Assembly: GCA_017991615.1 (NCBI GenBank)
Contig: JAGOQF010000001.1
Location: 53,019-117,018 of the forward strand
DNA length: 64,000 nt
Direction of reading: 5' to 3'
Origin: Candidatus Shapirobacteria bacterium
GTDB lineage: Bacteria; Patescibacteriota; Microgenomatia; UBA12405
Shown here: piece by piece, positions 3,482-20,163 of the stretch
Layout of the letters: each line of letters starts with the position of its first letter
Position numbering within the stretch: position 1 is the first letter of the stretch
Position numbers and translations under genes: made by a program
Notes under the pieces: generated by a model
Databases searched by the model: none
What the model saw: only the letters and a program-made list of their open reading frames with translations
What the model was told of the DNA's origin: nothing

Positions 3482-4088
3482 ATTTAATAAAAATTAGTCC
3501 GAAGACGATAAAAATTAAACTTGTAATTTGAGCTAAACTTAGGACAAACACAGGAATAGTGTCTGTTCTAATAAACTCTAATATAAAACGTATTATACCG
3601 TAACTAATAAGATAAATACTGGTTTGATGACGATTAATTTTTTTGAAAATTAAATAAAGAAGGAAAAGACTAATGGATTCATATAACCAAATTGGTTGTT
3701 GATTTGGGCCATAAATTTCATGGTTGAAATAATTTCCCCAGCGACCAAGACTTTGACATAAAGGTACAATCGGAGCTAAGGTATCAGTGATTTTGAGAAA
3801 TTTAAGTTGATTCTTTTTGGCGAAAAAGTAGATAAAAATTAAACTGAAACTGAGAGCGCCAATGATACCCAGTCCCCCACCCCGGAGATTTAGAATTTGG
3901 AGAGGATTTTGAGAAAAGTAATTCCAGGCGGCAATAACACCATAAACTCTGGCGCCAATGATGCCTGATAAGATAAGCAAAAAAATGAATTTATTTTCTT
4001 TGGTTTTGGGGATGATTTGGTTATGGCGATAGAAATATTCAATGCCAACGACTAATGAAATTCCAAGTATAAACCCATAGATTGACAT
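3462..4088 (-). CDS. lgt: Prolipoprotein diacylglyceryl transferase
   Basis: Polytopic membrane protein with Lgt-like segments (GARVYGV, GRWGNYFNHEIYGP). The start ATG abuts the tRNA-like fragment at 4089-4160. Confidence 0.65.
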   Translation of the reverse strand: MSIYGFILGISLVVGIEYFYRHNQIIPKTKENKFIFLLILSGIIGARVYGVIAAWNYFSQNPLQILNLRGGGLGIIGALSFSLIFIYFFAKKNQLKFLKITDTLAPIVPLCQSLGRWGNYFNHEIYGPNQQPIWLYESISLFLLYLIFKKINRHQTSIYLISYGIIRFILEFIRTDTIPVFVLSLAQITSLIFIVFGLIFIKYENSRH

Positions 4089-4214: not shown

Positions 4215-4427
4215 TTAACTTTTTAGGCTTTTTAGATATTTTTCGGTTTTTAGAGCATCGGAATGATTATCAAATTTTTGGCTATATTTTAGTTTAACTG
4301 GAAGATATTTACTAGTAAATCCACTTTTACCATTTTGATGATCGTAGATTCTTTGTTTAAGATTGCGAGTGCTGCCTATATAATATTTTCCGTTTGATAA
4401 TTTTAGAATGTAAACCCAAGAGGACAT
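4215..4427 (-). CDS. Small GIY-YIG nuclease domain protein (70 aa). It starts 3 nt after the tRNA-Lys 3' end.
   Basis: WVYILKLSNGKYYIGSTRNLKQRIYDHQNG: GIY / YIG motifs, conserved Arg, His. Confidence 0.7.
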   Translation of the reverse strand: MSSWVYILKLSNGKYYIGSTRNLKQRIYDHQNGKSGFTSKYLPVKLKYSQKFDNHSDALKTEKYLKSLKS

Positions 4428-5132: not shown

Positions 5133-8100
5133 CTAGCTTGGATTTGACAAGAGGATGCTATCAATTTGTTCTTGGAGTTCTTGATTATAGTTAACACCAT
5201 AACTTAACGGCAGATTTTTACCGTTTGGCAGAATAATCAAACCGCGGTGACCGTTGGGGTTATTTTTTAGAAGACTATTTAATTTCATAAGTTGATTCTG
5301 AGTAGCAGTTTTGGGGATATTAATGACAAAGTCATATTTGCTGCTATTTTCTGGAACTTGATTGGTTAAAACATCAACTAAAATTGACGGGTTGTCATCT
5401 CTAATATTGATTTTACCTTCGATATAAACAGCTTTGTTTTCTTCTAAGAGATCTGATACTTTATCGTATATTTTTGGGAAAATGACAGCTTCGATTGAAC
5501 CAGTTTCATCTTCAAGGGTCACGAAGGCCATTTTGGCATTGTTTTTTTTAGTTAAAATAGTTTTAAATTTTTTAATAACAGCGACAGTTTTAATTGGAGA
5601 GTCATTAGGTTTTTGGCTGATTTCTTCGATTTTTGGTAGGTCAAGATCAAGGAAGGGTTGAAGAATTTTATTGATAGGATTTTCGGTAACAAAGACTCCA
5701 ATCAATTCTTTTTCCATAATTAGGCGTTGACTTTCACTCATAGGCTCAACATTAAGAAATTGATCTGGTGGAGCAGAAATTTTGTCTCCGGATTCATGAG
5801 GTGAGTCAAACAAACTAAATTGACCGCTATTTTTTTTGGAATTTAGTTTTTCGCAATCAGAACGGATTTTATCCAAGGAAGCCAAAATAGCGTTGCGTTC
5901 ACCGAACTGGTCTAAGGCACCGACTTTAATAAGGCTTTCCAAAACTCTTTTGTTAACTTTTTGACTATCAACTCTGATGCAAAAGTCACTAACGCTTAGA
6001 AAAGGACCATTTTTGTTTCTTTCAGCAAGGATATTGTCGATGGCGGCATTACCGACATTTTTGATAGCGCTTAAACCAAAACGAATAGCAGTGCCTTCAA
6101 GTGATTCTGGATTTTTCTCCATTTCAAAACCACTATCGGATTTGTTGATATCTGGTGGATTGACAATAATACCTAAGTGACGGCATTCATTGACACCATC
6201 GGTAATAGTTTCGGTATCACCAGATTCGGCAGTTAATAGGGCACACATATATTCAGCGGGAAAATTAGCTTTCATGTAGGCAGTACGGTAGGCTAACATT
6301 CCATAAGAAGCGGCATGAGCTTTGTTGAAACCGTAAGAAGTAAATGGTTCGATAAGTTTAAAAATTTCTTCAGCTTTGGTTTTGGTATAACCATTGGCAA
6401 TACAACCGGAAATGAATTTTTCTTTTTGAGCAGCCATTTCTTCGGGGATTTTTTTACCGATGGCTTTTCTAAATTTATCAACTTCAACCCAGTTGTAGCC
6501 AGCTAATTCGATGGCGGTGTACAAACAGTCGTCTTGATAGACTAAAAGTCCATAAGAACTTTGAAGGAATTTTTCCATTTTTGGGTCAAAATAAGAAACT
6601 TTAGAAGGGTCATTTTTGCGAGCAATATATTCGGGAATAATGGCCATAGGTCCGGGGCGGTAAAGAGCGACCATGGCCATAAGGTCTTCGACTCGGTTAG
6701 GTTTGAGTTCTTTGATCCATTTGGTCATACCTTCACCGGCTAGTTGAAAAACTCCCATGGTGTTGCCGCTAGATAACATATCAAAAGTTTTCTGGTTATC
6801 GAGAGGAATTTTACGGATATCGATGTCTAATCCACGGTTTTTTTTGACGTTTAAAACTGATTGACCTAGAAAAGATAAATTACGGATTCCTAAAATGTCA
6901 TATTTAATCAAGCCAACATCTTCACAGGCGTGCATTTCGTATTGAGTGATAGGTTTGTCACCACCAGTTTCGGTTTGAACTGGAGAAAAATCAGTGATAG
7001 TAGTGGGAGAAATAACAATAGCACAGGCGTGGACACTGATGTGTCGAGCACAGCCTTCAATTTGTTTAGCGGTGTCAATAATTTTTTTAGCATCAGCGTC
7101 AGTATCATACATTTGTTTAAGTTCTGGAGTGGTATTTAGGGCTTTGTCAATAGACATAGGGAAACCTTGGGAACCAAGAGGAATAATTTTACTGATTCTG
7201 TCACCAACAGCATATTCGTATCCTAAAACTCTAGCAGTATCTCGAATGGCGCCTTTGGCCATCATTCGACCAAAAGTACAGATTTGGGCGACGGCGTCTT
7301 GGCCATACTGCTCAATGATATGGTAAAGCATGCTTTGACGTTTATCGTCGGCAACATCGAGATCAATATCTGGCGGTGAAGGACGGTCTTTGTTGAGAAA
7401 TCTTTCAAAAGGGAGTTGATAGATTAAAGGATCAACAGAGGTAATACCCAAGACAAAGGCGACCAAACAACCACCAGCGGAGCCTCTAGTATTGGTGGGA
7501 GTGTTATGTTTTTCGGTCCAACAGATAAAGTCATACATAATTAAAAAGTAAGCGGCATAACCTTTGGGATTGATAACATTGAGTTCATAGTTAAGCCGTT
7601 CTTTGACTTCTGGAGTTAATTTTCCATAATGTTTCTTGGCTCGTTGAAAGACTAAATCATGAAGAGTTTCTTCAGCGGTTTTATTGGGGGGAAGTTTAAA
7701 CTTGGGAAAATACCACTTACCGAGTTCAATTTCCAATTGACATTTGTCGGCGATTTTTTGAGTGTTTTCTAGAGCGTCGGGATAATCGGCAAATTGTTCG
7801 GCCATTTCTTCGGGAGATTTGATATAGAAATCAGGAATATTAATCATAGTGAGACGCTTAGAATCGTTGATAGTGGTTTGAGTATTAATCATCATCAAAA
7901 CATCTTGAGCAAAAGCATCTTCTTTTTTGAGATAGTGAGCGTCGTTGGTGGCAACCAAGGGAATTCCTAGTTCACGGCTGATTTTGATGATACCTTCGTT
8001 AGCTTTTTCCTGGCCGTCTAGGTTAGGATGACGTTGGATTTCCAAGTAATAGTCTTCGCCAAATAAATTTTGAAAATCTTTAGCTCTGATTTTGGCTTGG

Positions 8101-11188: not shown

Positions 11189-11265
11189 GGGCTCGTGGTG
11201 CAGCGGTCTAGCACATCCGCCTGTCACGCGGAAGATCGTGGGTTCGAATCCCATCGGGCCCGCCA
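11189..11265 (+). tRNA. tRNA-Asp (anticodon GTC), CCA encoded
   Basis: Cloverleaf: acceptor gggctcg/cgggccc, anticodon stem tccgc/gcgga with loop ctGTCac, T-arm gtggg-ttcgaat-cccat. Confidence 0.85.
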
Positions 11266-12714
11266 TACTGAAAAATCGTCATTTTTCCCCATATTTTCGA
11301 GATAAGAAAATGGTTGTTTATACGTAACCTTTTGAAGTTTTTGATTTTCTATTGTAGCGTTCCAAAGTGTTGATTTTAGTAAATTGTCTTTTACTTCCCT
11401 ATCGCCAGAGTCATACATTTTTTTGAGGGAAATAGCGGTGTTTTTAAATTTTTTTAAAAGTTCCAAGATTGTATTAAGGTCATTAAATTTTGAGTGGTTT
11501 TTTTGATTTTCAAGTGCGGTAATTTCAGTTTCAATTTCTAGTTTTTTACTATCGTAAGTTTGGTTGTCAATTTGTTGGTTTAGTAATAAATCAAGTAGTC
11601 TATTTTTCTTTTTATTCAAATTATTAATTTGATTGTCGATGGTTTGATCAATGATGGTTTTATTTGAATTTCCTCTTTTTAGATCGTCTATGTATAGATT
11701 TAAAGATAATTCTGCTATTTCTGGGTCTATGGTGATTTTAGACATAATTTGGGACATGAGAATATCAACGGATTTTTCGGTTAGGTATTTTAGGTGTTGA
11801 TCACAATTGTGACGACTGTTAGTGCAGTAGTAGTAAACGTGTTTTCCCTTTTTTATGGTGGCAGTTAATTTACAGTTACATTTATTACAGGTCAGATAAT
11901 TGCTAAAGAGAAAATTATGTTTTTGTTTTTTTTGGTGATTGCTTCTATTTAACAGATATTGTGCTTTAGTAAATAGAGATCTGGAAATTAAAGGTTTAAA
12001 GCTACCTTGATATTCTTTACCCTTGCTGACTATTATGCCACAGTAAAGAGGATTGGTTAGAATTCGGTGAATTACTGACCTGTGGACCTTTTTGTTAGCT
12101 CTGTAGGTTCTAAAACCCTCTAAATAAAGTTTATTAGTGATTTGGCTAATAGAATAATCGCCGGTGGTGTAAAGTTTAAAGATTTCTTTAATGAAATGTG
12201 AATTATTTTTGTTGGGAATAATATTCCCGTTTTTGTTTTTGTAGCCAAGAGGAGCAGGGGCGCCGTATTCACCTTTTTTAAGTTTGGTTTCAATCCCCTC
12301 TTTAACTCTTTGTGAAAGATTTCGAGAATAATATGTTGCTGAAGCTAACTCAATTCCCATCATAAACATATCGTTGGGAGTATTGTAGGTTTTTGCAGGA
12401 GTTCTGATTTCTTTAATGATACCCAAATCATGTAATTTGCTTATCTGTCCTGCTTCTATCCAATTTCGACTAATTCGGTCTATATGACAGACAAGAAGAC
12501 CTTCGGCTTCTCCTTTTTGAAATTTGTCTAACATTTTTTCAAACTCAGGTCTATTACCGTCATCTTTAGCACTTTTAGTTTCAATAAAAGTTTCAATTAT
12601 TTCGAGATTATTGGTTTTAGAAAATTCGTTGAGAATTCTTTTTTGGGTTTCTATTGATTGAGTTTGATGTGACTCGTCCTCTGATGATTTTCGACAGTAG
12701 GAAAAATATTTCAT
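11224..12714 (-). CDS. Large serine recombinase (resolvase-domain N-terminus, recombinase domain, zinc-ribbon region). Its 3' end runs antisense into tRNA-Asp.
   Basis: N-terminus YCRKSSEDESHQ...SIETQ (catalytic Ser region), ~496 aa, Cys cluster (CNKCNCK...C). Confidence 0.75.
   Translation of the reverse strand: MKYFSYCRKSSEDESHQTQSIETQKRILNEFSKTNNLEIIETFIETKSAKDDGNRPEFEKMLDKFQKGEAEGLLVCHIDRISRNWIEAGQISKLHDLGIIKEIRTPAKTYNTPNDMFMMGIELASATYYSRNLSQRVKEGIETKLKKGEYGAPAPLGYKNKNGNIIPNKNNSHFIKEIFKLYTTGDYSISQITNKLYLEGFRTYRANKKVHRSVIHRILTNPLYCGIIVSKGKEYQGSFKPLISRSLFTKAQYLLNRSNHQKKQKHNFLFSNYLTCNKCNCKLTATIKKGKHVYYYCTNSRHNCDQHLKYLTEKSVDILMSQIMSKITIDPEIAELSLNLYIDDLKRGNSNKTIIDQTIDNQINNLNKKKNRLLDLLLNQQIDNQTYDSKKLEIETEITALENQKNHSKFNDLNTILELLKKFKNTAISLKKMYDSGDREVKDNLLKSTLWNATIENQKLQKVTYKQPFSYLENMGKNDDFSVWRARWDSNPRSSA
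11259..11591. repeat. Left 333-bp direct repeat (contains the 3' end of the recombinase gene)
   Basis: Identical to 15882-16213 at every position compared. Confidence 0.85.
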
Positions 12715-13578
12715 TTAGATTGCTTCTTTTATATAAAACCTAGTATATTTTACATTACCGTTGAATTGACTTGTATATTCACTTTTGAAGTAAGGGGTAA
12801 TCTTTTTTTGATTTAACCTTTCAATTATTTTTTCAGCGAAATCTCCATATTTAATTTTAGGTTTCTTAAGTCCTTTAGAAGTAAAAAAGGATCTTCTTCC
12901 ATAAAGTCTTGGATCATTGCTATTTTTAGTTAAATATTTAGTAAAATAGCTTCCCATTCCTTCGATATAATAGATATCTTTGAGTTTAATAAAACCATAT
13001 TTCCAAAGTTTTTTAACGATTTTTTTCTCAATAAAAGGAACGTTGATTATTAGATGGTAATGAACAGCTCCTCTTTTTTGAAATTCTGGAACAGCTAAGT
13101 ATTTTAAATTTAAATTTTTAAAATTATTTTTAAGACTTACCATAAAATTATGAAACTTGAGGTTACAAATTTTTAAATCAGTAATGTCGAAATTATTTTT
13201 ATTATCAAAAGTTAATGTGAGAAAAACAGAATCTTTATTGAAATTTGATTCAATCAATCTTCTTACTTGACCAATAACTCTAGTTTTAGTTCGTTCTCTG
13301 TATTCCTCTTTTCTGCTAATAAAAACATCAAAATCATATGGTCGTGGTTCTCTATTTTTCTTTACTTTTTCTTTTGGTGGTTTGTTTATAAGTAATGGTT
13401 TTTCATATTGGTAAATTTCGATATGATGACCACAAAGGATAACTTTAGTATTTACCGATGTAATTGGATCTGTTTTATAAATTACATCGAATATTTTTTT
13501 CTTATTTGTGACGGTATAATCAAGTCTAGGGTTGAGACTCTTTGGACTGGCGCCAGAAATTTTGTTTCGAATGCTCAT
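12715..13578 (-). CDS. Rolling-circle replication initiator (HUH endonuclease, pC194/pUB110-like Rep)
   Basis: Motif 1 FLTLTFD, motif 2 HYHLIINVP (HUH), motif 3 YFTKYLTK (catalytic Tyr). Start chosen at MSIRNK with AGGAGG RBS 5 nt upstream. Confidence 0.7.
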   Translation of the reverse strand: MSIRNKISGASPKSLNPRLDYTVTNKKKIFDVIYKTDPITSVNTKVILCGHHIEIYQYEKPLLINKPPKEKVKKNREPRPYDFDVFISRKEEYRERTKTRVIGQVRRLIESNFNKDSVFLTLTFDNKNNFDITDLKICNLKFHNFMVSLKNNFKNLNLKYLAVPEFQKRGAVHYHLIINVPFIEKKIVKKLWKYGFIKLKDIYYIEGMGSYFTKYLTKNSNDPRLYGRRSFFTSKGLKKPKIKYGDFAEKIIERLNQKKITPYFKSEYTSQFNGNVKYTRFYIKEAI

Positions 13579-13733
13579 TTGAACCTCCTTTTTTTGAATG
13601 AGGAGATACAAATGGCTTTACCTAAATAAATTAAGGATTGTCTACATTCTTCAAAATCTTTTTTCGACAGATTAATCTCTGGGAATCGATCTTTGAATAT
13701 TTGTCTTAATTTTTCTTCTGCCAATACTGACAT
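13575..13733 (-). CDS. 52-aa ORF (MSVLAEEKLRQIFKDRF...) translationally coupled to rep by an ATGA overlap
   Basis: Open frame by manual translation. Stop overlaps the rep start; too short for the ORF track. Function unknown. Confidence 0.3.
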   Translation of the reverse strand: MSVLAEEKLRQIFKDRFPEINLSKKDFEECRQSLIYLGKAICISSFKKRRFK

Positions 13734-13815
13734 GACGGAAGAATAAGAGCTTTACTAGGGGTAGCTTCAAACTGTTTTTTTATTCGTAATTTGGGGTATG
13801 AAAAGGGGGTAGTTT

Positions 13816-14646
13816 TTAGAGTGTTGTTAGAAGATAAACTTTTTTATTTTCATCGTGTTTTATCGTAAGTTTTATATTTTTGATTCTATTTTTTATTTGA
13901 CGAATATTGGTTTTAAAAAGATAATGATTCATTTCGAGTTTTTTTCTAATGTCTTTTGAACTAATACCTTGATTATTTTTAATCAGTAATTTAATTATTT
14001 TTAATCTTATACTGCCTTTTTTAAAGGTTATCTCTTTTTTATTAAACGATAAGATGTTGTTCTTTAAACGAATTCCATTTGTTTTGATTGGTGAATATTG
14101 TGATTTTTGTTTTTCTAAAGCCTTGTCTGTTTCTTCTAAAATAAACTCAATTCTAGTTGGTATCGGAAATTTTTTACTACCGTTTATAGCAAACAAAGTT
14201 TCTATATCTCCTTGAAAATTTAAGTAATTTGCTCGATTATTTACCCAATTACCAATCATAGTTTTTGGATCTCCTAATAAGTTAGGAATCTCATCGAAGG
14301 TTATATCTTTATCCATTATTTGACTTAGGAACTTACCTCTCTTAAAGCCAATTTCTTTTAATACAAATAGAAATAGAGGATAGGCTATGTTAATATCTCG
14401 ATTTGGTTTAATAAATATGTTTTGATTATCTTTTAGAACACAATCTAAAATTTCTATTGTTTTTGAAAGTATTAATTTGTATATAAATAAGTATTGTTGG
14501 TATGTAAATTTACATTTTGTATAGATTTTTGTATTGCAAAGTGTTGCCATTGACTTATCATTTTTAGGGATTGTTGTTAATAAGAGATCGACTGTTTTTG
14601 GGGTCCATCCAGTGGTTAATATTTGATTTATGTAGGATTTAAGCAT
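13816..14646 (-). CDS. Hypothetical protein (276 aa) with a basic, possibly DNA-binding C-terminus
   Basis: Long ORF within the element. No family recognised. Confidence 0.4.
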   Translation of the reverse strand: MLKSYINQILTTGWTPKTVDLLLTTIPKNDKSMATLCNTKIYTKCKFTYQQYLFIYKLILSKTIEILDCVLKDNQNIFIKPNRDINIAYPLFLFVLKEIGFKRGKFLSQIMDKDITFDEIPNLLGDPKTMIGNWVNNRANYLNFQGDIETLFAINGSKKFPIPTRIEFILEETDKALEKQKSQYSPIKTNGIRLKNNILSFNKKEITFKKGSIRLKIIKLLIKNNQGISSKDIRKKLEMNHYLFKTNIRQIKNRIKNIKLTIKHDENKKVYLLTTL

Positions 14647-14723
14647 GGATAAATTATATCAAAGGGTATCATTGTGCCCATAGACTCCATAAGCAATAAA
14701 GTGTTTCCGTTGGCTTTTATAAA

Positions 14724-14802
14724 TCACCCCAACCCAAAGTCGTATTATCTCACGCCGTCCGGCGCGGCCGGACGTGAGGACGACTTTTAAGGTTGGGGGT
14801 GA
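14724..14802. other. GC-rich 79-nt imperfect palindrome with nested core hairpin gtccggc-gcg-gccggac. Candidate replication origin / nick-site hairpin, or regulatory structure.
   Basis: Arms tcaccccaacccaaagtcg...ctcacg and cgtgag...cgacttttaaggttgggggtga are reverse-complementary with bulges. Local GC far above the flanks. Confidence 0.5.
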
Positions 14803-14815
14803 GTTTAGGGAGAAA

Positions 14816-15028
14816 TTAAGAAAACAAATCTCTGATGTTGGTTTTTAGGGCTTTAGCTAATTTATCAATTGTATTTAATGTTGGATTTCTTTTGCCGTTT
14901 TCAATAGCTACTACTGTTCTAGGATCTCTGTAAATTTTCTCTGCCAATTGTTCTTGTGATAATCCGTTTTCTTTTCTTAATTCTCTAATTCTTTCGCCAA
15001 ACTTCTGATAAATATTTGCCATTGACAC
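14816..15028 (-). CDS. XRE-family helix-turn-helix transcriptional regulator
   Basis: IRELRKENGLSQEQLAEKI...RTVVAIENGKRNPTLNTIDKLAKAL matches the Cro/C1 HTH. Confidence 0.8.
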   Translation of the reverse strand: MSMANIYQKFGERIRELRKENGLSQEQLAEKIYRDPRTVVAIENGKRNPTLNTIDKLAKALKTNIRDLFS

Positions 15029-15088
15029 AATCTGACATAAATGTCACTATTACAACAGGAAATATATTTCGTATTTTTATATTAAATT

Positions 15089-15829
15089 ATGGTATTTAAG
15101 GAAATTAATACTAAAAATATACCGCATATAAATTCCCTACTTGAAAGATTGAATGAGTTTAATATGTCTGAAGTTGAAAAGATTCAAAGACAGACATTTT
15201 TAAACTGGATAAAGAAACTAAAGTTATCTAAAAATTCAATTGTTTTATCTGTGTCTGTTGGGAATGGTATTTGGGATTATTTGGCTTTTTTACATAATAA
15301 AACTATTAGAAAAATAGTAGCGACAGATGTGATTGAAAATCCAGTTAGAAAAAATGATGTTGAAATTTTAAGAAGAATTGGAGATTGGAAATTTAAAAGA
15401 GTAATCCCAGAGGGAAAACTACCGTTTAAAAGTAATTCGTTTGATTTAATTTTTCATCAAGATGTGATTGAACATACTAAGAAACCTCATTTATTTTTAT
15501 CGGAGCAATTTAGGGTTTTAAAAAAGGATGGGTTTTTGATATTTGGAACTCCAAATTTATTAAGACCAGCTAATATAATTAAATTAATTTTTAATAAACT
15601 ACATTTTCCTGTCACTTTAGGATCTACGATTGAATTGGGAGATTGCACTCATATTCAAGAATTTAACTCCCAACAAATTGTAGTTATGTTGAAGGAAATA
15701 GGATTTAAAGATATTGAAGTTAAAAATTGTTTTTTTGGTATTCATTTATTGAATATAGTGTTTAAGGATTATTTGAGAAAAGATAATTGCAATTTATGTC
15801 ATTTTTTAATGTTTAAGTGTAAAAAATAA
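15089..15829 (+). CDS. Class I SAM-dependent methyltransferase
   Basis: Motif I-like VLSVSVGNGIWD, motif post-I VATDV, and FDLIF...LKKDGFLIFGTPN. Confidence 0.6.
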   Translation: MVFKEINTKNIPHINSLLERLNEFNMSEVEKIQRQTFLNWIKKLKLSKNSIVLSVSVGNGIWDYLAFLHNKTIRKIVATDVIENPVRKNDVEILRRIGDWKFKRVIPEGKLPFKSNSFDLIFHQDVIEHTKKPHLFLSEQFRVLKKDGFLIFGTPNLLRPANIIKLIFNKLHFPVTLGSTIELGDCTHIQEFNSQQIVVMLKEIGFKDIEVKNCFFGIHLLNIVFKDYLRKDNCNLCHFLMFKCKK

Positions 15830-15836
15830 TTTATAT

Positions 15837-16088
15837 CTATTTGTTTACAAATAAATCTATTCTAATTTTGTCCCATATTGTCCGCCATACTGAAAAATCG
15901 TCATTTTTCCCCATATTTTCGAGATAAGAAAATGGTTGTTTATACGTAACCTTTTGAAGTTTTTGATTTTCTATTGTAGCGTTCCAAAGTGTTGATTTTA
16001 GTAAATTGTCTTTTACTTCCCTATCGCCAGAGTCATACATTTTTTTGAGGGAAATAGCGGTGTTTTTAAATTTTTTTAAAAGTTCCAA
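15837..16088 (-). pseudogene. Duplicate of the 3' end of the serine recombinase gene (inside the right direct repeat)
   Basis: Translation ELLKKFKNTAISLKKMYDSGDREVKDN...DDFSVWR is identical to the C-terminus of 11224..12714. Confidence 0.75.
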
Positions 16089-16213
16089 GATTGTATTAAG
16101 GTCATTAAATTTTGAGTGGTTTTTTTGATTTTCAAGTGCGGTAATTTCAGTTTCAATTTCTAGTTTTTTACTATCGTAAGTTTGGTTGTCAATTTGTTGG
16201 TTTAGTAATAAAT
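15882..16213. repeat. Right 333-bp direct repeat
   Basis: Identical to 11259-11591. Confidence 0.85.
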
Positions 16214-16357
16214 AAGGTGAAATGGTTGAGTGTTGGCTCGATGTTCAGTTGAATATTTGGAATAGAGAAAAATAACTTGATCCAGGGCTTTTTTATAAAT
16301 ATTGTTCACTGCTTGGATTATACAATTGTTACTGGATTTTTAATATATAATGTGTTT

Positions 16358-16786
16358 ATGGCAAAAAGGGAAGTTTCGATTGTAATTTTTTATGACACTA
16401 ATGGTAATGTTGCTGTTCAAGAAAGAGGTTTACATTCTAAGATAGGTGAAAAATATGGATATTTTGGAGGGGGTATTGAGCCTAATGAATCACCACAAAT
16501 GGCTATAAGAAGAGAATTAAAAGAGGAGTTGGGATACATACCAGATAGTTTAAAACTATGGACTGAACATAAATTTTATCCGACTGACGGAAAATATAAA
16601 GGTTGGTTAATTAAACTGTATGTATTTTTGTCTCCAATAACGGCAAAATTATTTAAAACGAGAGTAAATGAAGGTAATAAGGTGGTGAAAATGAGTATTG
16701 ATGATGCTATTAATAATGAGGGATTTCATTCTGGGGATATAGAGTTATTACAAAAGTTTAAGTTAAGATTTAGAGATATTACATAA
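16358..16786 (+). CDS. NUDIX hydrolase
   Basis: Canonical Nudix box GGGIEPNESPQMAIRRELKEELG. Start taken at MAKREV, after a TATATAAT -10-like element. The ORF track extends to 16277. Confidence 0.75.
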   Translation: MAKREVSIVIFYDTNGNVAVQERGLHSKIGEKYGYFGGGIEPNESPQMAIRRELKEELGYIPDSLKLWTEHKFYPTDGKYKGWLIKLYVFLSPITAKLFKTRVNEGNKVVKMSIDDAINNEGFHSGDIELLQKFKLRFRDIT

Positions 16787-16855
16787 AGTAAATCTATATT
16801 TTGATTAAATGGAAAAACTTTAATTCGTTATTTCAGGGGATTTTTAGTAAGTTTT

Positions 16856-17734
16856 TTAGGCTTTTACTCCGTGGCGTTCATATATTTCTTTATTATTAGT
16901 GGACAAAGCAGATTCTGAAATTCTCCAAGGTTCGGTTGGCCTAACTCCAGCTTGGTAACATGCTTGCACAAAAACGTGAAGTTTAAGTTTATTGTCGTAT
17001 AAAGGTAATAGTTTGAGTATGGTGTTACCCAGTATCGCCATTCTAGCTGAGTGAGTATAACCATTTAAACCGGCTATGGGTTCTTGGACTAATCCAATAT
17101 GATTTTCAGATATACCAGGGATTGGTCTTTGAAAGGGGTGATTTACACTAGACCAAATTTCGGAAAATTTTTGGTCTTGATATAGATCTTTTAAAATACG
17201 AGCCATAGTTATTGGTTGCCAAGTATATACGTCTGGATTGTCATAAGGATGGTCTTCGTTTTTTGTTAGAAGTGCCACTTTTTTTTCGGTACATCTTTTG
17301 GCAAATTCTAAAAAAAACAAATTTATTTTCTTTCTTTGTTCTGTCGTTTTGTTTTCCATTGATAAGTAGAATTTCCACCGATCATTTGGATAATTAGTTA
17401 TTAGGTGATTAATATCAACATTAGTATTCCATGGTTTTGAAAATCCATTAAGGAGGTGAATTGTTTCTGGATATCCAGTTGGAGGAATTAAATCAACTGG
17501 AAAAATTTGTTTATCTGGTTGTAAATTTCCACTAAGTGCAAAAGAAAGGTCGCGTCTTTCTTTTCTAGCTTTTTTAGTTAATTCGATAATTTGTGGTAAA
17601 TGTCTTTTTTCTATTATTGATGTGTCTTCAATGCAGGGAACTAATTCAGGTTGGGTTTTGTTTAAAATGATATGGGATTTGTTTTCTGAATTTATAAAAT
17701 CTCTTTTAATTTCGTTCATAAAAGATTTTATCAT
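16856..17734 (-). CDS. Hypothetical protein (292 aa)
   Basis: Long ORF, no recognised motifs. Confidence 0.4.
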   Translation of the reverse strand: MIKSFMNEIKRDFINSENKSHIILNKTQPELVPCIEDTSIIEKRHLPQIIELTKKARKERRDLSFALSGNLQPDKQIFPVDLIPPTGYPETIHLLNGFSKPWNTNVDINHLITNYPNDRWKFYLSMENKTTEQRKKINLFFLEFAKRCTEKKVALLTKNEDHPYDNPDVYTWQPITMARILKDLYQDQKFSEIWSSVNHPFQRPIPGISENHIGLVQEPIAGLNGYTHSARMAILGNTILKLLPLYDNKLKLHVFVQACYQAGVRPTEPWRISESALSTNNKEIYERHGVKA

Positions 17735-17768
17735 GTGGGTGATTGTTAAATGGTAGTTTGTTATTTTG

Positions 17769-17798
17769 TTGACAAAATCGATAAATAATGATATTATA
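17769..17798 (+). promoter_or_regulatory. Sigma70-like promoter (TTGACA-18-TATTAT) upstream of 17912
   Basis: Consensus -35 and near-consensus -10 read from the sequence. ~110-nt leader. Confidence 0.4.
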
Positions 17799-17911
17799 GG
17801 ATAATAATATAGTGGTTTTAGCTATATTAAAGAAAATAATGGCGTTTGGACGAAGCGTTCAAAAGAGCCTTTGTATAAAGCCCTTTTAAATCAAAAAAAA
17901 GGAGAAATGAT

Positions 17912-18133
17912 ATGAGTGGTTTTTTGGTCATAGTAGTGATTGGTCTTTTGTGGGTGATTGTTTTTTCGATTATGGAATATAGACAGGAGAAGAACGATAA
18001 AAATGTTTACATTCCAAGAGATTATGATAGAAAGATGGAAGAATGGAAGGAGATGTTATATAGGTCAAGGTGTGAATGTCATAGACCTATAATTCTTAGG
18101 AGAAGGAGGGATAATAGATGGGTTTGGCGTTAA
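17912..18133 (+). CDS. Small membrane protein, hypothetical
   Basis: N-terminal TM helix. Downstream of the promoter. Confidence 0.3.
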   Translation: MSGFLVIVVIGLLWVIVFSIMEYRQEKNDKNVYIPRDYDRKMEEWKEMLYRSRCECHRPIILRRRRDNRWVWR

Positions 18134-18495
18134 ATTATTGCCAACAGAGACTTATTTCTTGTTTGGTATGGATAATTTTGATTGGTTCAGTGGTAGTTGT
18201 TTTGATTGCGATAATTTGGTTGATTATAAAAAGATTAAGGATTTTATCTGACTTGGAAAGAGATTTGAATAAAAGATTGGTTATTGTTAAATCTGGTCAG
18301 TGTTTGAGTGTACAGGATGCGATTATTTTAGAGAAAGACCTAAATTCTTTACTTAATCTTTTTGAAGAGAGTTATAAAATTGACAAAAACCCAAAATTAA
18401 AAGATCGATTTTTGAATTGGAATAATATTCATCTCAATTTACAAAAATATCTCAGAAAGGAGATAAATTTTTCAGAATTAAAGTGTTTGATTTAA
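18118..18495 (+). CDS. Hypothetical membrane-anchored protein
   Basis: TM helix, then coiled/basic region. Confidence 0.3.
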   Translation: MGLALNYCQQRLISCLVWIILIGSVVVVLIAIIWLIIKRLRILSDLERDLNKRLVIVKSGQCLSVQDAIILEKDLNSLLNLFEESYKIDKNPKLKDRFLNWNNIHLNLQKYLRKEINFSELKCLI

Positions 18496-18568
18496 AAGGT
18501 TGGCGGTTGGCGCTACTAATGATATATTTATATCTTAGTTACGTTAGCCGCCTTCTTTTTGGAAAAAT

Positions 18569-19611: not shown

Positions 19612-20163
19612 ATGAAATTTTCTGATATCCGAAAAAAATATTTTAAGTCAACTGAGGAAATTGTGAGTATGTTTTTGGGTTTGATAATTGTGGTGGTGGT
19701 TGGAGGATTAATTTTTAGTTATTTTCAAAAAAATAAAGGGAATATTAATATTCCGGGGTCAAGTGATATTAGTTTAAGTGATAAAAGTGACGGTGATAGA
19801 TCTGATTTTTATGAGGTGGAATTGGGAGATAGTTTGTGGAAAATAGCCGAAAAAAAATATAATAACGGTTATGCTTGGACAGAAATTGCTAAAGCTAATA
19901 ATATAAAAAATCCATCAGTGATTGAGGTGGGGCAGAAGATTGTTTTGCCAGAAGTGGAGGTGACTGAGAAAATTGAGGTAGATAAAATTTTGGTGGGTAG
20001 TGAATATAAAGTGGTTAGAGGAGATAGTTTGTGGAAAATAGCGGTGAGGGCTTATGGTGATGGTTATCAGTGGGTAAAAATTTGGGAAGAGAATAAATCA
20101 AAGATTTATAATCCCAATGGTTTGGAAATTGGGATGATGATCAGTATTCCTCAGATAAACTAA
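19612..20163 (+). CDS. Membrane-anchored protein with two LysM domains
   Basis: Two copies of Y.V..GDSLWKIA...Y.....W..I...N.I.NP..I..G..I.IP. Confidence 0.75.
   Translation: MKFSDIRKKYFKSTEEIVSMFLGLIIVVVVGGLIFSYFQKNKGNINIPGSSDISLSDKSDGDRSDFYEVELGDSLWKIAEKKYNNGYAWTEIAKANNIKNPSVIEVGQKIVLPEVEVTEKIEVDKILVGSEYKVVRGDSLWKIAVRAYGDGYQWVKIWEENKSKIYNPNGLEIGMMISIPQIN

Follow-up and report, generated by a model that had tools for sequence, protein, structure and literature searches.

The question raised by this locus is what kind of element adjoins the tRNA-Asp gene of a Candidatus Shapirobacteria (CPR) bacterium, and how it enters and leaves the chromosome. In the window (the whole 64,000-nucleotide stretch that was analysed) it lies between two long direct repeats, and assemblies of several digester metagenomes also contain it in the form of a free circle. 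We consider it likely that the element is a 4,622-bp integrative rolling-circle plasmid; the original prediction, that a plasmid-like element with rolling-circle replication has integrated at the 3' end of a tRNA gene, is supported in this respect.

The host target is tRNA-Asp(GTC) at 11189-11265 on the plus strand, for which ARAGORN and Rfam agree. The direct repeat (R) is perfect over 332 bp, with copy 1 at 11260-11591 and copy 2 at 15882-16213; perfect direct repeats had been correctly predicted, with a length of 333 bp and a left start that were each one base off. R overlaps the final 6 nt of the tRNA gene (CCGCCA), and not the last 7 nt as first stated. Leftward beyond the perfect repeat the two copies stay similar (TCCCATcggGcCCGCCA versus TCCCATattGtCCGCCA). 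The copies are spaced 4,622 bp apart, and the mobile unit (R plus the unique part) has this size; the ~4.95 kb given earlier corresponds to the 4,954-bp span, in which R is counted twice. The GC content of the element (0.289) is lower than that of the left flank (0.374).

The gene content was as predicted. A large serine recombinase of 496 aa in its integrated form (11224-12714, minus strand) contains Resolvase, Recombinase and zinc-ribbon domains, and its S10 and four Cys residues were invariant in 26 homologs. Its start codon abuts the stop codon of an HUH Rep (minus strand, 12715-13578 with ATG start, 287 aa, or to 13611 with TTG start, 298 aa). Upstream of Rep lie a 52-aa ORF (13575-13733, minus strand), conserved in related elements, and a 276-aa ORF (13816-14646, minus strand) encoding a lineage-restricted protein, whose last ~85 residues are predicted to fold into a winged-helix-like DNA-binding domain; neither protein matched any PHROG or Pfam family. 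Beyond them are a GC-rich long hairpin (14723-14802, minus strand, 5' arm CACCCCCAACCTTAAAAG), an XRE-family HTH regulator (14816-15028, minus strand), a class-I SAM-dependent methyltransferase as cargo (15089-15829, plus strand) and an 83-aa copy of the recombinase C-terminus with the circular-form tail (15837-16088, minus strand).

The Rep had been assigned to the pC194/pUB110 type, and this assignment has to be changed. It belongs to PF23343 (REP_ORF2-G2P), and the Rep_1/pC194 model was not among its Pfam hits at E <= 0.01. Its motifs are FLTLTF, HYH and YFTKYLTK, and residues T121, T123, H173, H175, Y211, Y215 and K218 were invariant in the alignment, which bears out the predicted conservation of the HUH and Tyr residues. 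It is phiX174-like, sharing with the phiX174 gene A protein the two-tyrosine motif III (YxxKYxxK), but without overall sequence similarity outside the motifs. The hairpin carries a box resembling the phiX174 origin, CCCCCAAC(C/T)T in the element versus CCCCCAACTTG followed by ATATT in phiX174 (annotated origin at 4306). Unlike in phiX174, this box is at the base of a ~80-nt hairpin. DNA-fold z-scores of the hairpin were -4.9 and -5.9, and in its seven homologous versions the mid-stem sequences differ yet still pair; the MAFFT/RNAalifold consensus was poor, and the hairpin was found in the closer Rep subfamily only (7 of 54 loci scanned). From this conservation and a 10-11-nt resemblance to phiX174, we infer that the hairpin is a candidate, and probably the actual, double-strand origin, with a role as single-strand origin being the alternative.

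Such an origin box could also belong to a phage satellite or to an ssDNA phage, inovirus or microvirus, that has integrated. PF23343 is named after inovirus/plectrovirus replication proteins, PHROG replication-initiator families match the Rep, and inoviruses were reported in CPR (PMC6813254). However, the element has no capsid, coat or morphogenesis (pI/Zot) gene, its only unassigned proteins are those of 52 and 276 aa, and five non-structural genes in 4.6 kb leave no space for a virion module. No relative of Rep was found in IMG/VR either, and a phage in place of a plasmid seems to us hardly credible.

The recombinase ORF extends 42 nt into the tRNA-Asp gene on the opposite strand, and in the integrated form the tRNA 3' end, read in antisense, supplies its last 11 codons (ARWDSNPRSSA); in the circle the protein has 499 aa and the C-terminus TIWDKIRIDLFVNK. 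Copy 1 of R encodes the final ~110 codons of the full-length recombinase, and copy 2 is a remnant copy of the same 3' end. R is the 3' end of the recombinase gene, and not an att duplication from tRNA integration as had been proposed, because relatives are bounded by a 6-15-bp core only (one related element by TGGCGG, the same 6-bp core as here) and because one R remains in the chromosome without the element. The true core of the family is ~6 bp, CCGCCA. The original model, a single recent recombinase-mediated insertion with the 333-bp repeats as att sites, would account for the position of the repeats, which lie on both sides of the element and start within the 3' end of the tRNA. It is contradicted by the short cores of the relatives and by the empty site, where the retained R is coding sequence of the recombinase and not of the host; moreover, serine recombinases use a 2-bp crossover and leave very short repeats (PMC5704250). 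We regard this model as very improbable. Nor does the 100% identity of the R copies imply a recent integration, because homologous recombination with a resident remnant predicts the same identity, and an assembler threading a collapsed repeat yields it by construction.

Circle, integrated and empty-site forms were all present in public assemblies, all 100% identical to the window. Circular contigs of 4,622 bp, that is, exact rotations of the unit with a terminal overlap of k-1 or k, came from 3 samples (L008/L028, DRR438533; L009, ERR14064716; L027, ERZ27249273), so that the expected circular junction exists. Another exact rotation of the 4,622-bp unit (L010, ERZ27239170) has a terminal overlap of 14 nt and is compatible with a circle, the overlap being no proof of closure since two branch points in R would also give 14 nt. 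The 499-aa recombinase can be read only through the junction of the circle; three recorded contigs, none longer than 4.5 kb, carry it. Empty tRNA-Asp sites exist as foreseen, but one R is still retained there: the exact 778-bp junction polX-tRNA-one R-NUDIX was found in 11 sequence-checked contigs, including one of 78.7 kb with coverage 11.7 (L120) and one from a 99-kb contig of an NCBI MAG (L017), and the 64-aa remnant ORF was found on 22 contigs. This tRNA with a single R is the commonest chromosomal state. In the integrated form, both repeats are spanned by two SPAdes contigs (L020 and L021) and by the window.

At 332 bp, R exceeds the assembly k-mers and probably the inserts of some libraries, so that flank joins across it cannot be proved from contigs, and the integrated arrangement could be an assembler path. 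The chromosome would then always be tRNA-R-NUDIX, the element would be solely a free plasmid sharing R, and the window would thread the collapsed repeat, which by construction gives perfect identity. The prevalence of the empty state fits such a chimera, all four flank pairings across R were seen in different assemblies, and many contigs end precisely at R boundaries (L008, L009, L013, L014, L018, L029 and L133). However, besides the three sequences spanning the whole structure, 12 collection blocks had Rep on contigs of at least 20 kb, with lengths of 0.2-1 Mb in three cases, and a 122-kb NCBI MAG contig holds both the tRNA-fused recombinase and the 83-aa fragment. In L036 the recombinase 3' end is duplicated in the same architecture with copies only 95% identical; such architecture therefore exists where an assembler could not have made it. 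A perfect 332-bp homology between plasmid and chromosome is also expected to recombine in vivo. Considering both sides, we think an assembly chimera unlikely.

For the integrative plasmid, we propose the following history. The circle would replicate via its phiX174-type HUH Rep, probably from the hairpin with the CCCCCAAC-TT box. Its attP would be embedded in the last ~25 codons of the recombinase's own gene, and the recombinase would insert the circle, antisense, into the tRNA gene 3' end; the anatomy of this insertion is seen directly and its catalysis is presumed from it. The 6-bp core CCGCCA would restore the tRNA upon integration. An earlier tRNA-Asp insertion in this lineage may have been truncated, so that only R, 332 bp from the 3' end of the recombinase gene, stayed attached to the tRNA. 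The tRNA-R-U-R arrangement in the window would be the product of a single crossover between R of the circle and the chromosomal R (Campbell-type cointegrate), from which the reverse crossover would free the circle again. Because attR, in which the P arm would meet the original downstream flank, is absent, the current interconversion is most likely due to homologous recombination and not to the recombinase. No recombination directionality factor was identified.

The junction at 15882 is nevertheless an intact attP-type site composed of P arm, core and recombinase 3' end; a junction of the same kind occurs in L036, and related loci contain several P-arm copies in series. These might point to insertion of a tandem (or plasmid dimer) by the serine recombinase, with the distal copy deleted to R and the proximal copy still excised by the recombinase via the attL-type and attP-type junctions. 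But the serine integrases that have been studied act on attP x attB, or on attL x attR when a directionality factor is present, and on no other pairing (PMC3783163). The products would be those of homologous recombination, so the data do not favour this route, and the frequent remnant alone fits more simply a history in which the remnant came first. We consider such recombinase-driven exchange improbable; the remnant may have existed before the crossover, or a tandem insertion may have preceded a deletion.

Among known systems, AICEs are also small, lie in tRNA 3' ends, excise to a circle and carry a rolling-circle Rep (RepSA), and their xre and nudix-type genes are a further likeness (PMC2440964). 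They differ in having a tyrosine integrase, Xis and an FtsK-like transfer protein in actinomycete hosts, whereas our element encodes a large serine recombinase and lacks a transfer gene; its Rep gave a weak local match to RepSA, far under the family cut-off (Pfam 27.8 versus 34 bits; NCBIfam 17 versus 700). According to a preprint (bioRxiv 10.1101/2020.12.28.424599), Prochlorococcus tycheposons and cryptic tRNA-island elements likewise combine a site-specific integrase with autonomous-replication genes beside tRNA genes, and the islands grow additively, marked by partial tRNA copies. As described there, these elements have primase, helicase or polymerase modules and almost always a tyrosine recombinase (large serine recombinase in 27 of 937) in marine cyanobacteria, whereas the present family has an HUH Rep translationally abutting a serine recombinase, in 3.6-8 kb and in CPR hosts; the preprint's single passage on large serine recombinases makes no mention of an attP inside the recombinase gene or of a shifted T-loop box. 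Serine-recombinase IMEs (Tn4451 group, streptococcal) are small and non-conjugative, carry one serine recombinase and are bordered by very short repeats, and some IMEs have RCR-type Rep or relaxase genes (PMC5704250); in our element no oriT or relaxase function was assignable. Since these IMEs disrupt dispensable genes and all tRNA-3'-end entries in the consulted passages of that review use tyrosine recombinases, the earlier description of Rep plus recombinase as typical needs a qualifier. SSV-family archaeal integrases also have the recombination site inside the integrase ORF (PMC7253208), but these are tyrosine recombinases whose gene is split in two by integration; in our element the gene remains undivided, and only its last 14 codons are replaced, by 11 codons antisense to the tRNA.

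Phage large serine integrases (A118/LI, phiC31, Bxb1) share the domain set of the element's recombinase. Their known targets are protein-coding or intergenic, whereas in our element a tRNA T-arm and acceptor stem make up the attB arm, attP falls within the integrase ORF, and Rep, not a phage module, is the partner gene. The B arm in tRNA-Asp (T-arm and acceptor 3' strand) has TTCGAA at 11243-11248 and TCCCA at 11249-11253, and the core at 11260-11265 forms an attL-type junction joining the tRNA arm to the recombinase 3' end. The attP-type junction (15859-15887) has TTCTAA at 15860-15865, TCCCA at 15871-15875 and CCGCCA at 15882-15887; its TCCCA is in register with the tRNA and its TTCNAA box is 5 bp further outward. 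Among ~86 related loci, 70 recombinase genes had a complete 3' end, and 59 of these run into, or directly adjoin, a tRNA gene on the opposite strand (Ser, Gln, Tyr, Asp, Lys, Val, Arg, Ala, Pro or Asn). The P-arm motif TGGNANNANNTTRGAA occurred 33 times on the recombinase strand versus once on the other strand (930 kb). Between tRNA arm and P arm the TGGGA box was in register and TTCGAAC/TTGGAAC was displaced by 5 bp; this comparison covers the P and B arms, and no clear motif was apparent in the other two half-sites, which are the recombinase 3' end and the original downstream flank. We found no description of this element family in the literature. In phage integrases the inner motif is likewise in register and the outer motif is 5 bp nearer the centre in attB than in attP, and the ZD-motif rule of Rutherford et al. 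2013 (PMC3783163) agrees with the shift seen here. The element belongs to a family whose serine integrases insert into tRNA gene ends, and in which the arm on the element side mimics a T-arm of tRNA whose T-loop box lies 5 bp further out, following the known attP/attB logic of serine integrases.

The tRNA-Asp(GTC) gene was located at 11189-11265 on the plus strand by ARAGORN and Rfam, and the Rfam search of the window gave no matches except tRNAs. A perfect direct repeat of 332 bp, called R, occupies 11260-11591 and 15882-16213 with a spacing of 4,622 bp, and its first six bases are the 3' end of the tRNA, CCGCCA. The similarity of the two copies extends to the left of R, where the tRNA side reads TCCCATcggGcCCGCCA and the right-hand copy TCCCATattGtCCGCCA. 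One R and the unique part U form a 4,622-bp unit with a GC content of 28.9%, compared with 37.4% in the left flank. A large serine recombinase of 496 aa, in which Resolvase, Recombinase and zinc-ribbon domains were recognised, is encoded on the minus strand at 11224-12714. Directly adjoining its start codon is the stop codon of a HUH Rep (12715-13578). The element further carries a 52-aa ORF that is conserved, the gene of a 276-aa protein specific to the lineage, an XRE regulator gene and, on the plus strand, the gene of a SAM methyltransferase of class I; within the right-hand R the C-terminus of the recombinase is present a second time, as an ORF of 83 aa. The tRNA-Asp, direct repeats and gene content of the original prediction are thereby confirmed. 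The recombinase ORF enters the tRNA gene for 42 nt on the opposite strand; there the CCA end, acceptor stem and T-arm, translated in antisense, supply its C-terminal residues W-R-A-R-W-D-S-N-P-R-S-S-A.

The divergent XRE and methyltransferase genes are separated by 60 bp, and a palindrome that lies there (15048-15081) is a likely operator. Past the second R copy, GC is also low (0.308 in 16214-18500), and this stretch contains a NUDIX hydrolase, a 292-aa ORF that matches no family and a pair of small membrane-like ORFs, followed by NDK. The entire interval from tRNA-Asp to NDK looks like a hot spot, because different cargo occupies it in the relatives L033 and L032. Further on, about 86 bp (19635-19719) found no alignment to contig NODE_5467 (L001/L021); they lie in the region of a LysM-domain gene called as 113 aa or 183 aa depending on the assembly.

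The recombinase matched Resolvase (PF00239, E=6.7e-25) over profile positions 2-144 of 145 and Recombinase (PF07508, E=7.9e-14), and the zinc ribbon (PF13408) scored 25.3 bits, exactly the cut-off. Among 26 recombinase homologs, Y6, R8, K9, S10 and the R-rich motifs were invariant, as were C276, C279, C297 and C304 of the zinc ribbon. The homologs were named as Shapiro-, Gottesman-, Dojka-, Collier- and Amesbacteria, with one partial MAG protein of Tissierellales, and the majority of their tails were of the W-R-x-[RG]-x-D-S-N-[PSL]-R type, that is, tRNA antisense.

In pC194 Rep, motif III carries a single catalytic Tyr (plus Glu). The assignment of the Rep to the pC194/pUB110 type (Rep_1) was rejected, as Pfam gave PF23343 (E=6.4e-20, cut-off 27.8 bits), no Rep_1 appeared among the Pfam matches at E<=0.01, and motif III holds two invariant tyrosines (YxxKY). 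Conservation of the HUH and motif III residues, on which the original prediction depended, was found across 18 sequences, the most distant with 16% identity: motif I (uTuT; T121, T123), HUH (H173, H175) and motif III (Y211, Y215, K218; YxxKYxxK) are all invariant. These motifs place the Rep in the phiX174-type two-tyrosine class.

Between the XRE and 276-aa genes we found a GC-rich hairpin of about 80 nt (14723-14802, minus strand), with a DNA fold of -27.8 kcal/mol and z = -4.9. Homologous hairpins are present 0.2-1.1 kb upstream of rep in the related loci L031, L032, L033, L037, L038 and L042. They have in common the base CCCCAAC...GTTGGGG, a TTAWAAG internal loop and a TAAAAT/ATAAT bulge, and their mid-stems differ between loci yet still pair. 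RNAalifold on a MAFFT alignment of the seven hairpins gave a poor, partial consensus only, and the conserved hairpin with the CCCCAAC-TT box was recorded in 7 loci. The 5' arm, CCCCCAAC(C/T)T, resembles the phiX174 origin, which reads CCCCCAACTTG followed by ATATTAAT (annotated at 4306). We take the hairpin to be the candidate double-strand origin, although it may instead serve as a single-strand origin.

The 276-aa protein (13816-14646) has 8 homologs on small contigs, none with a Pfam domain or an informative name, and itself gave no Pfam, NCBIfam or PHROG match. Its AlphaFold2 model was moderate (mean pLDDT 70), with residues 190-276 confident and winged-helix-like, and Foldseek returned weak winged-helix matches (ScpB, MarR/ArsR domains) at E>=0.18. 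A DNA-binding C-terminus is therefore predicted as probable. Genes for NUDIX hydrolases and PF13489-type methyltransferases were seen repeatedly within or next to such islands in unrelated hosts (window 16358-16786; L037 158-661, 3369-4277 and 5499-6233; L036 8891-9364), and AICEs also carry nud genes (PMC2440964).

Three states of the element were seen among the contigs of public assemblies. Proteins identical to those of the element carry the NCBI name Candidatus Shapirobacteria bacterium, and the descriptively named sample records were anaerobic-digester or generic "metagenome". The circular-junction contigs that the original prediction called for were found: L008/L028 (DRR438533) and L009 (ERR14064716), Logan contigs of 4,652 bp with a 30-nt terminal overlap, and L027 (ERZ27249273), a k=141 contig of 4,763 bp with a 141-nt overlap, are exact rotations of the 4,622-bp unit. 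L010 (4,636 bp) is also a rotation, but its 14-nt overlap is geometric, expected from two branch points in R, and is no proof of circular closure. Read over the circle junction, the recombinase has 499 aa and the C-terminus TIWDKIRIDLFVNK; this exact protein is recorded on three contigs, all <=4.5 kb. We regard the free circle as very probably real.

The empty tRNA-Asp site, a check proposed in the original prediction, was also found. An exact 778-bp sequence of polX, tRNA, one R and NUDIX, equal to the window minus exactly 4,622 bp, occurs in 11 contigs without the element, including L120 (78.7-kb SPAdes contig, coverage 11.7) and L017 (from a 99-kb NCBI MAG contig); however, one R stays at the site. 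The 64-aa ORF that gene callers report for the lone R, with its tRNA-type tail, was present in 22 contigs. The integrated form, tRNA-R-U-R-NUDIX, was found in full in two more SPAdes contigs, L020 and L021, and partial paths of it in JGI, ENA and Logan contigs. The Rep was found in 12 collection blocks on contigs 20 kb or longer, among them three of 0.2-1 Mb, and a 122-kb NCBI MAG contig contains the tRNA-fused recombinase and the 83-aa fragment together. Contigs often break exactly at the R edges, and R is longer than the k-mers used, so contigs cannot prove that the flanks are joined in single molecules; we consider the integrated state real with good probability. More than one of the states occurs in each of the samples ERZ27239170, ERZ27257428, JGI 3300028593, DRR438533 and ERR14064716. 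In sample ERZ27239170 (L019 vs L010), a G/A polymorphism at R position 269 (window 16150) places G with the recombinase body and A with the NUDIX side, a linkage which fits integrated and separate states alike. In the divergent strain L002, the differences are all outside the element. Two contigs, L020 (ERZ2647912) and L024 (ERZ2647956), showed 57 and 25 gap openings with split recombinase and Rep calls, more likely from error-rich assembly than from gene decay. The integrative, excisable rolling-circle episome of the original prediction was right in kind.

The interpretation of the repeats as the att duplication of this integration did not hold, and the argument from their 100% identity to a recent integration was mistaken. 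R is recombinase coding sequence, yet one chromosomal copy persists without the element. Serine recombinases leave very short repeats, according to a review (PMC5704250). In the relative L031 (recombinase 58% identical, same tRNA-Asp), only the core TGGCGG bounds the element, and the far junction is composed of a terminator hairpin, TGGCGG and the P arm, the element-side arm of attP beyond the core. Other relatives have a common core of 8 bp (L033) or 15 bp (L047), and shared cores across the family are 6-15 bp; the crossover core of serine integrases is itself short, at 2 bp. On these grounds, the 332-bp R is not the attachment site.

The simplest history would begin with an earlier recombinase-mediated insertion at tRNA-Asp which became truncated and left a tRNA-R remnant. 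A circle with the same 332 bp would then have joined the remnant by a single crossover, and the product would be the entire plasmid between two copies of the common segment, as observed. The right-hand junction would be the plasmid's intact attP-type junction (P arm, core, recombinase 3' end). As in a Campbell-type cointegrate, the direct repeats equal the common segment, and the circle and the empty site have one copy each in the contigs. The identical sequence could also have arisen by tandem insertion with a later deletion. The P-arm motif occurs once in the 64-kb window (15860-15875), and between 16214 and the NDK gene we found no terminator-type flank and no attR, that is, a P arm with the original host flank. 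With no attR in the window, canonical recombinase-mediated excision by attL x attR is unavailable, and the studied serine integrases use no pairings beyond the canonical ones (PMC3783163). Another candidate, R as the start and stop site of Rep (a duplicated origin with replicative excision), was rejected, as the candidate origin hairpin lies in U, outside R.

The remnant and crossover history concerns an architecture that is not confined to the window. In L036 (recombinase 49% identical, tRNA-Ser), a second copy of the final 242 bp of the recombinase gene, with 95% identity to the first (2553-2794 vs 7652-7893), lies at the element's far end, where it adjoins a P arm. Since these diverged copies cannot be a collapse artefact, the duplicated 3' end is real. 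It recurs but is uncommon: of about 70 related loci, L036 shows it in addition to the window, and L057 possibly does. In L057, a recombinase 3'-end copy with the P arm at the far end (1-116 vs 3598-3713; 116 bp, 100% identity) is cut by the contig end and may reflect reads of the circular form.

A family survey comprised 86 loci, 80 of them from metagenomes, with 70 recombinase genes having a complete 3' end. An antisense tRNA was overlapped or abutted by 59 of these 70 genes, and the targets by script count (n=59) were Ser 21, Gln 19, Tyr 6, Asp 4, Lys 3 and Val 2, with Arg, Ala, Pro and Asn 1 each. The remaining 11 included three with a T-arm-like sequence missed by ARAGORN and four with the P arm directly 3' of the gene, the attP configuration. 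In the former (L053, L066 and L079), GG(A/C)TCGAACC follows the recombinase 3' end where ARAGORN called no tRNA, and the tRNA genes there may contain an intron or be unusual in some other way. A PF23343 Rep is directly upstream of the recombinase in 29/69 loci. The P-arm motif TGGNANNANNTTRGAA lies upstream of the Rep-recombinase pair, in every case on the same strand; in 930 kb it occurs 33 times on the recombinase strand and once on the other.

Numbering from the first core base on the recombinase strand, TGGGA is at positions 13-17 in both the tRNA (T-stem) and the P arm, and the T-loop box is at 18-24 in the tRNA (TTCGAAC) and at 23-29 in the P arm (TTGGAAC/TTAGAA). In the window, TCCCA at 11249-11253 and 15871-15875 is in register at +4622, and TTCGAA at 11243-11248 has its P-arm counterpart in TTCTAA at 15860-15865, displaced outward by 5 bp. 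The pattern of in-register TGGGA with a 5-bp-shifted box was found in 20 loci with the targets Asp, Gln, Ser, Lys and Asn. Serine integrases follow an established rule (PMC3783163): attP and attB share an inner (RD) motif that keeps its register, while the distance of the outer (ZD) motif from the centre is 5 bp smaller in attB than in attP. The present sites, read for one arm pair only, obey it. Near the core, the P arm agrees with the acceptor stem of the tRNA that serves as target. We might speculate, tentatively and as a possibility short of an even chance, that these recombinases form a CPR-wide clade in which the universal tRNA T-arm serves as one attB half-site and the attP in the gene's own 3' end is a T-arm mimic with the T-loop box 5 bp outward, the core-proximal P arm tracking the acceptor stem of the target (Asp, Gln, Ser, Tyr, Lys and others).

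Serial P-arm copies were seen in related tRNA islands: L033 (3109-6624, within repeated units of about 390 nt), L047 (5506, 6464), L030 (558/847/1635/4096), L119 (761/1285/3680), L037 (1427, 7623) and L031 (1082, 4396). A terminator-like hairpin and a tRNA-3'-end core precede the motif in L033, L047, L031 (4396) and L119 (761), and are absent in L030 and L037. These copies look like an accretion of decayed elements or mini-cassettes; the terminator hairpin at each L033 and L047 copy finds no explanation in serial insertion at a tRNA.

Among known systems, the element resembles the pSAM2-type AICEs: both sit at a tRNA 3' end with xre/nudix genes nearby and have a circular, rolling-circle form. 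The hallmarks of AICEs are a tyrosine integrase with Xis, RepSA, an FtsK-like Tra and an actinomycete host (PMC2440964). Unlike these, the element has a serine recombinase, its RepSA matches are below the cut-offs, its host is named Candidatus Shapirobacteria, and no Tra-like gene was found among its six ORFs. Prochlorococcus tycheposons (bioRxiv 10.1101/2020.12.28.424599) likewise combine an integrase with replication genes and build additive tRNA islands with partial tRNA copies, and 27/937 of them have a large serine recombinase; here, however, a HUH Rep replaces the primase/helicase module and the host is a CPR bacterium. The element thus falls outside both AICEs and tycheposons. The attP within the integrase ORF resembles that of the SSV-family integrases (PMC7253208), but the exchange is limited here to the C-terminal tail. 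An inovirus or microvirus prophage or satellite was rejected: no ORF gave a pI/Zot, coat or major capsid match in Pfam or PHROG, and the Rep had no relative in IMG/VR. In comparison with IMEs, the Rep could double as a relaxase, with no oriT or helper system identifiable. A full-text literature search returned no description of this element family.

The single locus has a familiar life style. What appears new is at the family level: tRNA-targeting serine integrases with attP in the integrase 3' end, a 5-bp-shifted T-arm mimic and a phiX174-like origin box. For annotation, long perfect repeats beside a tRNA are not necessarily att sites; they can also arise where a plasmid recombines with what an earlier insertion of it has left behind. 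Serine integrases are sought for genome engineering, and a constant outer motif with a target-matched inner segment offers a handle on specificity.

Little seems to be on record about mobile elements in Candidate Phyla Radiation bacteria, and here all three life-cycle states (circle, integrated copy and scarred empty site) are recoverable from public data. If the T-arm reading is true, the C-terminal tail would be swapped on integration and could in principle tell the free from the integrated state, and the clade would be a naturally modular integrase family with a changeable target. Passages of the IME review (PMC5704250) list tRNA-3'-end entries with tyrosine recombinases and describe serine-recombinase IMEs as disrupting dispensable genes; a large clade of T-arm-reading serine integrases obeying the 5-bp rule would, if true, widen this picture of IMEs.
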